Sequence record: NC_041869.1
Reading direction: 5' to 3' (one strand)
DNA: 64,000 nt
Source of the DNA: Escherichia phage APECc02
Shown here: piece by piece, positions 13,260 through 17,623 of the stretch
Numbering within the stretch: the first letter of the stretch is position 1
Layout: each line of letters begins with the position of its first letter
The notes under the pieces: model-generated
What the model was told of the DNA's origin: nothing
Database searches by the model: none
Seen by the model: only the letters and a program-made list of their open reading frames with translations
Position numbers and translations under genes: made by a program

Positions 13260-13334
13260 GCCCTGTTAGCTTAGTGGATAAAGCAGCGGCCTTCTAAGCC
13301 GTTGACACTGGTTCGAGTCCAGTACGGGGTGCCA
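13260..13334 (+). tRNA. tRNA-Arg (anticodon TCT)
   Basis: Hand-folded cloverleaf: acceptor gccctgt/acggggt (two G-U pairs), D stem gctt/aagc, anticodon loop cttctaa, T arm actgg-ttcgagt-ccagt, encoded CCA. Confidence 0.75.
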
Positions 13335-13338
13335 AATT

Positions 13339-13425
13339 GGGGAGTTATCCCGTAGAGGTAGCGGTGTAGACTGTAAATCTATTGTCATTGCGACTCGGGT
13401 GGTTCGACTCCACCACTCCCCACCA
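13339..13425 (+). tRNA. tRNA-Tyr (anticodon GTA), long variable arm
   Basis: Acceptor ggggagt/actcccc, anticodon loop ctgtaaa, T arm ggtgg-ttcgact-ccacc, encoded CCA; 87 nt type II. Confidence 0.75.
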
Positions 13426-13539
13426 AATTTACATTTTTAAATGCATAAATCATACAGATAATGGCATTGATATTTATCGTCGTTTATACTAGTCACTAAC
13501 TGCTCGAAAATCAGTGTCATTATCAGTATTGTTTATAAA

Positions 13540-13630
13540 TGAGGGTAGGGAGCAATGGTGCTCAAGCGGTCTTGAAAACCGTCCCGTTGAGGATGACTCG
13601 ATGATGGTTCGATTCCATTACCCTCAGCCA
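13540..13630 (+). tRNA. tRNA-Ser (anticodon TGA), long variable arm
   Basis: Acceptor tgagggt/accctca, anticodon stem-loop gcggt-cttgaaa-accgt, T loop ttcgatt, encoded CCA; 91 nt. Confidence 0.7.
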
Positions 13631-13728
13631 TATTGTTGACCTTGTAATTAAGCGAAAGCCGGAAGCAGAACCGGATTATCAAATGTTACAGTCGTCATCG
13701 CCGACTAGCAACATGGTCAACATACTGA

Positions 13729-13825
13729 GCTAGGTAAGCCCTTTGGCAAGGGCGAGGATTTTTAATCCTGAAAATAGACGAGGTAGTCGTTGAATACATA
13801 GGTGGTTCGATTCCATCACCTAGCA
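13729..13825 (+). tRNA. tRNA-like gene, identity ambiguous (anticodon possibly TTT, Lys)
   Basis: Perfect acceptor gctaggt/acctagc, D stem gccc/gggc, T arm ggtgg-ttcgatt-ccatc, but about 30 nt between anticodon arm and T arm, no position-26 spacer, no encoded CCA. Confidence 0.4.
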
Positions 13826-13832
13826 CCTTTTT

Positions 13833-13908
13833 GCTGATGTAGCACAATTGGTAGTGCAATTGATTTGTAATCAATAGGTTGCAGGTTCGAGTCCTGCTAT
13901 CAGCACCA
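13833..13908 (+). tRNA. tRNA-Thr (anticodon TGT)
   Basis: Acceptor gctgatg/tatcagc, D stem gcac/gtgc, anticodon arm attga-tttgtaa-tcaat, T arm gcagg-ttcgagt-cctgc, CCA; 76 nt. Confidence 0.8.
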
Positions 13909-13909
13909 T

Positions 13910-13984
13910 GGCCCTGTAGCTGGAAGGTTCAAGCAAGCGACTCATAATCGCCAGACGGTGGTTCAATTCCACCCAGGGCCACCA
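13910..13984 (+). tRNA. tRNA with CAT anticodon (Met, or Ile2 read via lysidine)
   Basis: Acceptor ggccctg/cagggcc, anticodon loop ctcataa, T arm ggtgg-ttcaatt-ccacc, CCA. The anticodon arm gcgactcataatcgc resembles bacterial tRNA-Ile2 as I recall it. Confidence 0.7.
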
Positions 13985-13995
13985 AATAATAAATA

Positions 13996-14072
13996 CTCCG
14001 CGTAGCTCAGCTTGGTAGAGCGCCTGATTTGGGATCAGGAGGTCGAGTGTTCGAATCACTCCGTGGAGACCA
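13996..14072 (+). tRNA. tRNA-Pro (anticodon TGG)
   Basis: Acceptor ctccgcg/cgtggag with C1-G72, D arm gctc-agcttggta-gagc, anticodon arm cctga-tttggga-tcagg, T arm gagtg-ttcgaat-cactc, CCA. Confidence 0.8.
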
Positions 14073-14501: not shown

Positions 14502-14900
14502 ATGATTTCAGTTTTAACATGGCTGAGTAGGTATAGAGGGATCATAAAAGGTTTAGTTTTTGCAGCTGCGCTAGGTACAGCTTATCTTGGGGCCGTATAT
14601 TGGTTTAACTCTAAGCTTAATGAAGCCTACCAAGAGGGTGTGTCAGCAACAGAGTTAAAGTGGGAACGGATCCTTGATCAGCAACAAAAGCAGGCCGACA
14701 AAATTAAAATGGGCCACGCAGAGGAGGTTAAAAACCTTGAAAAATCCCTTTCTGATCTGCAGGATAAATTAAATATGGCTGAGAAGGCAGGTAAAGAAAA
14801 GCAGATTATCTACCTCCAGTCACCTGAAGGCAAGAAGTCAACACTTCCTGATCAGCTTATAGATATTTATAATGAGAGTATCAATCAGGAGGATCAATGA
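14502..14900 (+). CDS. putative i-spanin (Rz-like)
   Basis: 132 aa; single N-terminal transmembrane segment (GLVFAAALGTAYLGAVYWF) then charged coiled-coil-like sequence; overlaps the next gene by 4 nt. Confidence 0.55.
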   Translation: MISVLTWLSRYRGIIKGLVFAAALGTAYLGAVYWFNSKLNEAYQEGVSATELKWERILDQQQKQADKIKMGHAEEVKNLEKSLSDLQDKLNMAEKAGKEKQIIYLQSPEGKKSTLPDQLIDIYNESINQEDQ

Positions 14901-15184
14901 GAGTTGCTACACTGTTTATTGCGTGCTTGTTATTATGTGGGTGTGCAACCAGCGTTGAGAGAGAATACAAGATTGACCCTCCGGATGTAGGAAGGTTGAT
15001 TGTTAAACCCCCGGAAGGTGCCATGAAACCACCTGCTAAAGCTATGCCTTTGAAGAAAGGTGCTCCAGATGCAGTAAATTCTGGCATTATGAGGGATAAT
15101 AATTTGTCTTGTAGCAATGATAGAGCTAAATTGATCATTTTGCAAGACTATATTAGAACACTGTTTCCAAAGGAGAGAGGTTAA
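14897..15184 (+). CDS. putative o-spanin (Rz1-like lipoprotein)
   Basis: 95 aa; signal peptide ending in a lipobox-like LLCGC, proline-rich mature part; stop overlaps the terminase start codon. Confidence 0.55.
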   Translation: MRVATLFIACLLLCGCATSVEREYKIDPPDVGRLIVKPPEGAMKPPAKAMPLKKGAPDAVNSGIMRDNNLSCSNDRAKLIILQDYIRTLFPKERG

Positions 15185-15618
15185 TGTCTAAGATTTCTAA
15201 GATTTACGGACCGTGTTCTGAAAAGCAGAAGATGATCCTCGAAAACGATGCAGATATTTTGGTAATCGGCGGTGCCGCAGGGTCTGGCAAGTCGTTCCTC
15301 TTGCAGTTGATGCCGCTTAAAATTATTGATGACCCACACAGCTCTGTGGTTATGTTCCGAAGAACAACCCCGCAGTTGGAAGGTGAGGGTGGACTATGGC
15401 CTAAAGCAGTAGCTATTTATAGTGATCTGCCTGAAAACATTAAGCCAAAGTTTAGAGAGAAGGATCATAAGTTCATTTTTCCACGGTTTGATCCGAGCAC
15501 TGGCAAGTGGGATAGAAGCAAAAAGGGAGCTGTTGTAAAATACTGCCACATGGAGTATGTACAAGATAAGCTTAACCATCAGGGGCTTGAGTACACCATG
15601 GTTTGCTTCGATGAGGGT
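15184..15618 (+). CDS. terminase large subunit, exon 1 (ATPase N-terminal part)
   Basis: Walker A VIGGAAGSGKSF; ORF stops immediately after the Walker B-like MVCFDEG, with the rest of the protein in another frame about 0.9 kb downstream. Confidence 0.75.
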
Positions 15619-16501
15619 TAATTTGTAGCTCTCGTAAAACCTCCCTAATTGCGGGGAAATCTTTATTATTGACACCACCAACCTGTTATGGTAACATAAT
15701 AGAGGCTTCGAAGAGAGATCGAAGGTATGGTAACAGTGTGTTAATTTAGATAATCCGCAGCGAAGCATCCGAGAGGATGAACGTTCAACGACTAGTCGAA
15801 AGACGTAGAATCAAGCGATTCGAAACGGGAGGGTGAATGTGTAATACTAAAAAATGTATGGATTGCCAAAGAGTTCTGCCTATTGATGATTTCTTTTTAT
15901 CATCTAAGAGCAAGGATGGATACTCAGGTACATGCAAGGAATGCTATATGTACTACAGGAAGGGTGGATCTCGTAAAAACAAAAATATGGTTAAGAGAGA
16001 TGACGCAGCATTGTTTATTCAAGACTTGCTGAAGAAAGGTGAACTTTTTGAATGCAAATCTTGTCATGAAAGTATGCTCGCTGATAGTTTTTACACAAAA
16101 CGTGACTATGGTAAAGTATATCTGGTTACGAACAGGTGTAAGATGTGTGAAAAGTTTTATCAGATTGAGAAGAAATTTCACATAACAAAAGATGAATACT
16201 ATCGTCTACTCTCAGATCAAGATCATAAGTGTGCCATTTGTAGAATATCTCTTAATGAGTATAGGACGCAAGGGTACAGAGATTTCTTTTGTGTTGATCA
16301 TGACCATAAAACTGGTGCTGTAAGAGGGTTGCTTTGTGATAAATGCAACAGAGCTTTAGGTTTCTTCCAAGAAGATGAGGAAACTATTCTTAGAGCGGCA
16401 GAGTATTTACACATTCATAAGATATAGTCTGGTCTGCATGGAGACATGCAGCTGCCTGAAAATGGCGGGGCAAGACTAGCGACCTTGCCCGAACATAAAC
16501 G
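15619..16501 (+). mobile_element. putative group I intron carrying an HNH homing endonuclease
   Basis: Intervening 883 nt between the two terminase parts; proposed 5' exon ends in T (15618) and intervening sequence ends in G (16501); free-standing HNH ORF inside; boundaries approximate. Confidence 0.55.
15837..16427 (+). CDS. HNH homing endonuclease (endonuclease VII-like motif)
   Basis: 196 aa; Cys-rich N-terminal zinc-finger-like region and CVDHDHKTGAVRGLLCDKCNRALG motif. Confidence 0.8.
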   Translation: MCNTKKCMDCQRVLPIDDFFLSSKSKDGYSGTCKECYMYYRKGGSRKNKNMVKRDDAALFIQDLLKKGELFECKSCHESMLADSFYTKRDYGKVYLVTNRCKMCEKFYQIEKKFHITKDEYYRLLSDQDHKCAICRISLNEYRTQGYRDFFCVDHDHKTGAVRGLLCDKCNRALGFFQEDEETILRAAEYLHIHKI

Positions 16502-17623
16502 ACACAGTTCGAATGGGAGCAGATAGACTATCTGATGTCTCGTCTGCGATCTCAGTCAAAGTATCCATCAAGAATGGTTATCAGCTGTAACCCTGATTCA
16601 GAACACATGCTTGCCAAACTGGTTAGGTGGTGGTTGGACGATGAAGGGTATCCAGATCCGGAGAAATGTGGTAAGAAAAGGTATTTTATCAGGCGTGACG
16701 GTGAATTTATCTGGGGAGACTCTAAAGAGGAGTTGATAGAGAAATACACCACGGTTAACGGACTGGGTGTGGAGATCAAGCCAAGACCGTTGTCATTCTC
16801 GTTTATAGGCGCAACAATATTCGATAATCCTGTCTGCTTGAGAGACAACCCAGAATACCTTGCTTTCCTTGAAGGTCTGCCTGAGCTTGAAAAAGCCCAG
16901 CTTCTTCATGGTAACTGGTTTGCAAAGCCTGAGGGTGCAAACTATTTTCAAAGATCTTTCCTTCGTGATGCCGATAGAGTACCTCTTGGATCAGTGTCTT
17001 GCAGGGCATGGGATAAAGCAGGAACCGAGAGAACTTCCGGTAATAAATTTCCTGACTTTACCGCCAGTGTCAAGGTAAGTAAAGATAGCGACGGCTTTTA
17101 TTACCTGTCCGGGGATTATTGTCCTGAGAACGTGGATGACGGGAGGTATTCCACAGGTCTGGAAGGCAAGTTCTGTAAAAAGGCTGGTGAACGAGATGTG
17201 ATCATCAGGAAACAGGCGCAGTTTGATGGTGATGATTGTATAATCGTATTCTCTGTGGACCCCGGTCAGGCAGGTAAGAGTGAGTTCTTAACCTCCTCCA
17301 GATCCTTGCTTGCCGAAGGGTTTAGGGTTGAAGAAGACCCAATGCCTTCCAACAAATCTAAACTGACAAGGTTCTCACCTTTTGCCAATCTTGCCCAACA
17401 AGGAATGGTGAGGATTGTAAAATCCAGTTTCCATCCTGATACTCTGGAAGCATTTCTGACTGAACTTGAAAAATTCAACGGGGAAAGATCAACATTTAAC
17501 AGAAAAGACGACTGGGCCGACTGTGTAGCTTCTGCGATTAATTTCCTGGAGAAAGAGGAGGTAGCACTTCCTTGTGTGATTCCATCAATCTCATCACCTT
17601 CTATGTTCAAGCGTTTTATCTAA
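16502..17623 (+). CDS. terminase large subunit, exon 2 (rest of ATPase plus nuclease domain)
   Basis: Frame open from 16499; RMVISCNP motif right after the junction, C-terminal DDWADCVASAINFL typical of terminase nuclease domains; the first ATG is only at 16535. Confidence 0.75.
   Translation, partial: TQFEWEQIDYLMSRLRSQSKYPSRMVISCNPDSEHMLAKLVRWWLDDEGYPDPEKCGKKRYFIRRDGEFIWGDSKEELIEKYTTVNGLGVEIKPRPLSFSFIGATIFDNPVCLRDNPEYLAFLEGLPELEKAQLLHGNWFAKPEGANYFQRSFLRDADRVPLGSVSCRAWDKAGTERTSGNKFPDFTASVKVSKDSDGFYYLSGDYCPENVDDGRYSTGLEGKFCKKAGERDVIIRKQAQFDGDDCIIVFSVDPGQAGKSEFLTSSRSLLAEGFRVEEDPMPSNKSKLTRFSPFANLAQQGMVRIVKSSFHPDTLEAFLTELEKFNGERSTFNRKDDWADCVASAINFLEKEEVALPCVIPSISSPSMFKRFI

Follow-up and report, generated by a model that had tools for sequence, protein, structure and literature searches.

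The gene for the terminase's large subunit (terL) of Escherichia phage APECc02 was analysed in a stretch of 64,000 nucleotides (nt) of sequence record NC_041869.1, referred to here as the window, whose numbering is used throughout. The window can be assigned to the genome of a Vequintavirus (rV5-like) coliphage. At this locus terL is divided between two open reading frames (ORFs) with a third one between them. The first terL ORF, at 15184–15621 in frame 1, ends with ...EYTMVCFDEG followed by a TAA, as read both from the ORF list and from the raw sequence; the second, at 16535–17623 in frame 2, includes ...SRMVISCNP and contains SKYPSRMVISCNP. The frame of the latter is open back to 16499, with a TAA at 16496–16498 just before it. 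It is very probable that terL of this rV5-like phage carries a group I intron, that its transcript is spliced to encode a TerL protein of 518 residues, and that the intron bears a homing endonuclease gene in the loop of its helix P8.

When position 15618 is joined to position 16502 (a T to an A), exactly 883 nt are removed and a 518-residue protein is obtained; the ligated junction is predicted to read ...GATGAGGGT followed directly by ACACAGTTC.... The insertion point lies between G145 and T146, one codon past the glutamate of the Walker B motif. In the joined product a contiguous ATPase domain with its Walker A and Walker B motifs precedes an RNase H-like nuclease domain, as expected for TerL: a single match to Pfam Terminase_6N (PF03237) runs through the junction (residues 28–297, E 4.7e-20), and residues 397–492 match Terminase_6C (PF17289) with an E-value of 2.7e-6. 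A sequence search of the PDB with the same product returned noise only and no homologue. The TAA at 15619–15621 ends the translation of unspliced RNA after exon 1; since this in-frame UAA is the first codon of the intron, translation of such RNA is halted at once. The same stop codon, together with the change of frame between the exons, rules out an intein. A preliminary description of the window had pointed out that terL breaks off after MVCFDEG and resumes with RMVISCNP in another frame, with which the ORFs and their frames agree.

The exact limits of the insert are given by relatives that lack it. Intron-less terL genes of Vequintavirus align in one piece across the junction, over 600/600 nt and with 94–98.5% identity; the gene of CM1 does so over 600/600 nt at 98.5%, and that of AlexBoehm is also contiguous. 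Around the site these genes read, for example in phage AlexBoehm, ...GATGAGGGC followed directly by ACGCAG.... Their annotated coding sequence (CDS) is 1548 nt long; the joined terL CDS of HeinrichReichert spans 2431 nt, that is 1548 + 883, and that of JohannBauhin spans 1867 nt, that is 1548 + 319. The join of 15618 to 16502 reproduces both the sequence and the protein of the intron-less gene. The comparison with intron-less terminase genes, which had been suggested as a check, thus bears out the limits previously given to the insert, namely 883 nt at 15619–16501, starting after an exon-terminal T and ending in G (G16501). Boundaries shifted by −1 yield the same protein with a G at the end of the exon and a C at the end of the intron, and were rejected because they break both rules that hold for the ends of group I introns.

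The insert matches the Rfam model for group I introns, RF00028 (Intron_gpI), between 15609 and 16451, over the full model (1–253) and with 46.3 bits; the E-value is 2.3e-10 when the search is local and 1.3e-8 when it covers the whole window. The ORF-less version of this intron, 319 nt long, reaches 84.9 bits in rV5 and 84.3 bits in JohannBauhin. In the Rfam alignment the conserved core blocks GUUCAACGACUA and AAGAUAUAGUC are aligned; all five pairs of P7 are standard in the pair model described next. The unconstrained minimum free energy (MFE) fold of the ORF-less form recovered P1, P3, P4, P5, P6, P7.2, P8, P9, P9.1 and P9.2, with a three-way extension on P5. From the helices of this fold, with the P7 pseudoknot and P7.1 added by us, a model of 96 pairs was built. 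The window copy has zero non-standard pairs in it, and over nine sequences it is 99.7% paired, versus 33–40% when the partners are slid by one to three columns. The group I core can therefore be folded, with helices P3–P7 present and P7 as a pseudoknot. P7.1 and P7.2 are fully paired in 9/9 sequences and fall where the Rfam alignment has a 29-nt insertion; the presence of these two hairpins between P7 and the 3' strand of P3 is the signature of subgroup IA (as in IA2-like phage introns), and for this reason the intron is placed in that subgroup. The coordinates of all these elements are collected in Table 1.

Table 1. Positions in the window of the terL exons, of the intervening group I intron and its structural elements, and of the endonuclease gene.
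Feature	Position	Strand	Details
terL exon 1	15184..15618	+	145 codons; Walker A GGAAGSGKS, Walker B MVCFDE, G145
P1 hairpin	15611..15635	+	exon 15611-15618 and intron 15619-15620 pair with guide 15626-15635
Group I intron	15619..16501	+	883 nt; subgroup-IA-like; P7.1 and P7.2; 3' domain like that of T4 td
P3, 5' strand	15640..15645	+	CCUCCC; pairs with 15827-15832; Rfam, fold
P4	15650-15655 with 15754-15759	+	fold, pair model
P5	15659-15662 with 15748-15751	+	fold, pair model
P5a/b/c extension	15668-15745	+	fold, pair model
P6/P6a hairpin	15760..15784	+	GAGA loop; Rfam, fold, pair model
P7, 5' strand	15790..15794	+	GACUA; guanosine-binding helix; pseudoknot with 16425-16429
P7.1	15795-15804	+	GUCGAAAGAC; hairpin between P7 and P3'
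P7.2	15808-15821	+	GAAUCAAGCGAUUC; hairpin between P7 and P3'
P3, 3' strand	15827..15832	+	GGGAGG; doubles as Shine-Dalgarno sequence of the endonuclease ORF
P8, 5' strand	15834..15847	+	holds the ORF ATG at 15837; Rfam, pair model
Endonuclease ORF	15837..16427	+	196 residues; Endo VII-motif (DHHRN / F-CphI family); CxxC-rich N-terminal modules
P8, 3' strand	16404..16417	+	within the last codons of the ORF
J8/7 and P7, 3' strand	16418..16429	+	UAAGAUA, then UAGUC (16425-16429); Rfam, pair model
P9	16435-16450	+	fold, pair model
P9.1	16453-16467	+	fold, pair model
P9.2	16468-16490	+	followed by a 3' tail up to the terminal G16501
terL exon 2	16502..17623	+	TQFEWEQ...SCNP...; remainder of the ATPase domain and nuclease domain

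The 5' splice site is defined by P1, a helix of 10 bp in which U15618 and G15628 form the splice-site wobble pair; all ten pairs are standard in the nine sequences. The exon sequence that flanks the junction changes with the presence of the intron. In 20 alleles that were read base by base, the exon ends in GGT in every one of the ten that bear the intron and in GGC in every one of the ten that lack it, and the first three positions of exon 2 are ACA in 8/10 of the former and ACG in 10/10 of the latter. Both differences are synonymous, and they fit a requirement for U at position −1, a co-conversion of the flanks during homing, or both. The group I assignment made in the preliminary description is thus upheld by the Rfam match that it had proposed to look for (46.3 bits), the full helix set from P1 to P9.2, the U·G wobble, the intron-less and ORF-less sister alleles, and the published annotation of related phages.

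The introns in terL of rV5 were reported by Kropinski et al. (2013, Virol J 10:76; PMC3606486), who name Shub for locating the rV5 intron, and in GenBank DQ832317 (rV5, ORF64ABC) terL appears as a CDS joined from three pieces. The Vequintavirus records of the BASEL collection (e.g., MZ501073) have a terL joined from two pieces and a 'putative homing endonuclease', which is the exact configuration of the window; their terL annotation relies on comparative calling of the intron boundaries. The gene and insertion site are the same in rV5, the BASEL phages and the window, and the intron core is 98–99% identical. Intron 1 of rV5 is the ORF-less form of 319 nt, unlike the 883-nt intron with its ORF in the window. 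There is also a second insertion site in terL (approx. 16815–16819 in the window), which is occupied in rV5 and HdK5 by a group I intron of approx. 979 nt with a different HNH ORF, the 3' part of which scores 35 bits with Rfam; in the window this site is empty, and a whole-window Rfam scan by E-value found no second intron.

A census of approx. 118 phage-collection records with this terL at ≥90% identity revealed that three allelic states occur: the 883-nt intron with the ORF in 28 records, the ORF-less intron of 319/320 nt in 23, and no intron at the site in approx. 67. The carriers of the 883-nt insert (97–99.9% identity) include HeinrichReichert, DrSchubert, WalterGehring and MaxBurger, from BASEL, as well as JES2013, whose insert is 99.1% identical to that of the window. 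Approximately 18 records named 'Campylobacter phage' (MG0656xx, e.g., MG065662; host C. jejuni) are 97–99.9% identical to the present rV5-like phage and classified as Vequintavirus, and some of them are flagged UNVERIFIED; these names probably reflect contamination or mislabelling. In MW883061 (40261–40311) and OK272482 (56541–56591), genomes of other coliphages of approx. 137 kb, unannotated loci hold a segment 94% identical to the P4'/P6 core (intron nt 133–184), which suggests, as judged from this similarity, that a related intron is present elsewhere in some relatives.

Several points weigh against the interpretation of the insert as a self-splicing intron. A scan of the whole window at the default Rfam gathering thresholds reported only tRNAs and missed the intron, since its 46.3 bits lie below the gathering score of 50 for RF00028, and it surfaces only when an E-value threshold is used. 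The low score is accounted for by the insertion of 582 nt in the P8 loop, which is costly under the model. The covariation within the intron family is supportive but thin, because the sequences share 97–99% identity and were themselves used to derive the model: among the nine of them, compensatory double changes occur at four pairs, of which one is in P5b (U-A to C-G) and three are in P8, whereas pairing in the model is preserved by three further changes that are one-sided, two of them in P5a. The covariance-model score is the main evidence for a group I intron. No P2 helix was found between P1 and P3, where only GUAAAA (15634–15639) is present, and Rfam aligns P2 as deleted, so that the assignment goes no further than subgroup IA. 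The candidate for P10, in which ACA (16502–16504) would pair with UGU (15624–15626), comprises approx. 3 bp and was picked out by eye. The association of U(−1) with the intron could be due to plain linkage or to co-conversion and not to selection on P1. Lastly, what was observed is the anatomy of the insert, its match to the covariance model, the precise position of the junction and the three states of the locus among relatives, and from this we infer splicing in this phage; the spliced terL intron of phage CB7, discussed below, bears on it by analogy only. The activity of the endonuclease and its target site are likewise deduced.

The ORF within the intron encodes a protein that matches Pfam Endonuclease_7 (PF02945) with an E-value of 1.3e-21 and the "endonuclease VII" families of PHROG. 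It also matches Hpy99I and T4 Endo VII in the PDB over a CxxC...DHDH...R...CxxCN core: C132-x2-C135, D154-H-D-H157, R163 and C168-x2-C171-N172 align with residues 8–68 of T4 Endo VII, and the catalytic core aligns with Hpy99I as well. The ORF is intact in the five copies that were read (5/5). With these motifs the protein belongs to the His-Me finger superfamily rather than to the classical HNH family; the earlier designation as an HNH endonuclease gene therefore stands as regards the presence of a nuclease gene, which is of the Endo VII-motif type and "HNH" only at the level of the superfamily. The gene and the ribozyme share sequence at both ends of the P8 loop. The Shine-Dalgarno sequence is the 3' strand of P3 and the AUG lies in the 5' strand of P8, so the ribozyme, once folded, should hide the start site of the ORF; at the other end, the last codons run through the 3' strand of P8 and J8/7, and the TAG stop codon (16425–16427) begins the 3' strand of P7. 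Delayed or occluded translation is known for the intron ORFs of T4. A sigma-70-like site is found upstream of the ORF at 15669–15697 (TTGACA-17-TAACAT with a TG extension, 10/12); it was rejected as a promoter of the ORF, given that it lies in P5a and is also present in the ORF-less allele of rV5.

The locus could be read without splicing, if a 145-residue piece with Walker A and B and a piece of approx. 362 residues started at ATG 16535 assembled after translation, in the manner of NrdA of Aeromonas phage Aeh1, which is split by the mobE endonuclease gene. Both TerL fragments are indeed open reading frames, and HNH-containing insertions that do not splice have been documented (Aeh1 NrdA, CB7_245; PMC7344957). 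Nevertheless, a complete and conserved ribozyme core is needless for the mere insertion of an endonuclease gene, and the ORF-less form of 319 nt persists in 23 records, in which it would split TerL pointlessly unless it is spliced. In addition, no Shine-Dalgarno sequence is suitably spaced from ATG 16535, a start there loses 11 conserved residues (TQFEWEQIDYL) that are encoded by the intron-less homologues, and the split falls inside the ATPase fold, one codon past Walker B. The locus is thus not of the Aeh1 nrdA/mobE type, for which one would expect no ribozyme and a downstream fragment with translation signals of its own. With the ribozyme core intact and conserved and an unconvincing ribosome-binding site for exon 2, we regard assembly of TerL from two fragments in the manner of NrdA as very improbable, and the same applies to the two separately translated terminase fragments that the preliminary description had kept as a fallback.

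Still less probable is that terL is a defective gene, in which the intron or the endonuclease insertion is in decay and whose genome is non-viable or was misassembled. The window is at most approx. 98% identical to any deposited phage and has a private duplication of 9 nt at the start of terL, which could be taken as signs of such a condition; on the other hand, the duplication is in frame, the ORF and all the helices are intact, and the same 883-nt insert is present in 28 records, including plaque-purified isolates. That the endonuclease is not, or not solely, a selfish homing enzyme but a packaging accessory comparable to the HNH proteins of the HK97 gp74 type that stimulate terminase is hardly credible: its gene lies inside terL and terminase-adjacent HNH proteins can belong to the packaging machinery (Kala et al. 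2014, cited in PMC7344957), yet the naturally occurring ORF-less alleles suggest that packaging and burst size are normal without it, and the role is rejected because the ORF is optional, being missing in approx. 90/118 close relatives (23 with the intron only and approx. 67 with neither), and the nuclease falls in an Endo VII-motif clade together with homing and restriction enzymes and is not gp74-like.

The group I intron in terL has close counterparts in other phages. The first terL group I intron to be described was that of an unrelated siphovirus, a precedent cited in the rV5 paper (PMC3606486). Pectobacterium phage CB7 (Certrevirus, Vequintavirinae) has a homologous TerL, with a group I intron that carries an HNH-type ORF and interrupts the same Walker B motif; this intron was shown to splice by reverse transcription-polymerase chain reaction (RT-PCR) and sequencing (PMC7344957). 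It is located 6 nt upstream (between VD and EG, as opposed to DEG and T in the window), it has another sequence in the intron as well as in the ORF, and it reaches 35 bits with Rfam. Since the two introns are different, the evidence of splicing in CB7 is not directly transferable and was not accepted as direct support.

Another useful comparison is with the td intron of T4 (subgroup IA2), which encodes I-TevI. Both are coliphage group I introns in essential genes, and in both the exon ends in GGGU and the intron starts with UAAUU, so that its first codon is an in-frame UAA. The two share P7.1 and P7.2, and the 3' 80 nt (P7', P9, P9.1, P9.2 and tail) are 82% identical, with differences in P9.1 and P9.2 that appear compensatory. 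In contrast, the 5' two-thirds of the window intron cannot be aligned with td beyond the core motifs, and P2, not found here, is counted as a further difference. The td ORF sits in the P6 loop and that of the window in P8, and the td endonuclease is of the GIY-YIG type whereas that of the window has the Endo VII motif. The latter motif defines the "DHHRN" homing family established around F-CphI by Fang et al. (2018, Mob DNA 9:27; PMC6083498), where the Endo VII-motif protein of JES-2013 is given as intron-encoded. The window endonuclease keeps the catalytic motif of this family (CxxC, DHDH, R, CxxC-N) and is approx. 30% identical to the S-PM2 protein. F-CphI is free-standing beside an intron in psbA ('collaborative homing'), whereas the window endonuclease is located inside the intron.

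The relationship between the two forms of the intron is also worth considering. ORF-bearing and ORF-less introns are 98–99% identical except at P8, where compensatory double changes set apart 3/6 of the basal pairs, and the comparison of alleles found no remnant of the ORF in the ORF-less introns. Given that the divergence is confined to P8 and that no remnant is left, the two forms do not seem to be linked by simple deletion; this pattern suggests that recombination with another intron brought in or removed the endonuclease gene as a cassette in P8. The closest DNA match outside Vequintavirus lies in the Felix O1-like phage BPS15Q2, where an intron of the DNA polymerase gene holds an Endo VII-motif ORF; this ORF was discarded as donor of the cassette because its catalytic domain is only 39% identical and its placement in the intron is different. 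A td-like 3' domain without a td-like 5' domain would fit a modular exchange among coliphage introns. Moreover, given the strands that they share, the folding of the ribozyme and the translation of the endonuclease would be mutually exclusive, and the element could in this way carry its own switch from splicing to homing and back. Taken as a whole, this set of proposals (an origin other than deletion, cassette recombination at P8, modular exchange and the switch) is tentative and, in our estimation, somewhat more likely to fail in some part than to hold in full.

As for the neighbourhood of terL, the two ORFs upstream of it (14502–15184) match genes annotated as i-spanin and o-spanin in relatives, and the stop codon of o-spanin overlaps the start of terL (TAATG, 15181–15186). 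At this start there is an in-frame tandem duplication of 9 nt at 15187–15204 (TCTAAGATT twice), which gives MSKISKIYGP; it is single-copy (MSKIYGP) in the eight relatives compared (8/8). Seven tRNA genes are found at 13260–14072. One sequence among them, at 13729–13827, was reported by ARAGORN as a 'tRNA-???' of 99 nt with a four-base anticodon (atcc) and obtains only 35.5 bits with Rfam; it could be a badly modelled tRNA with a long variable arm or an unusual tRNA.

From the interpretation of the terL insert as a group I intron, the following course of events can be proposed. The primary transcript would adopt the fold of a group I ribozyme, comprising P1, P3–P9.2 and, as in subgroup IA, P7.1 and P7.2. 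Exogenous guanosine would attack after U15618, which in P1 is paired with G15628; a second attack, by the released exon 1, would follow after the terminal G16501, and the ligation of 15184–15618 to 16502–17623 would produce the mRNA for the 518-residue TerL. In a mixed infection the endonuclease would presumably cut intron-less terL alleles, in which GGC and ACG adjoin at the site, and repair of the cut allele would copy the intron into it.

A canonical mobile group I intron of this kind has already been described for this phage group and is not new. Its recognition matters for annotation, since gene callers split terL into two or three "terminase" pieces and a "recombination endonuclease VII", and many relatives are annotated in this way; a proper annotation would consist of a joined CDS (15184..15618 and 16502..17623) along with features for the intron and for the homing endonuclease gene. 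The locus is another case of a selfish intron/endonuclease pair in an essential phage gene, where it occupies a catalytic motif that is highly conserved. While no new principle emerges from it, the empty site, the intron with its ORF and the intron without it co-circulate in a single genus, so that each of the three stages of the homing cycle is represented, which makes this genus a convenient natural system for its study.

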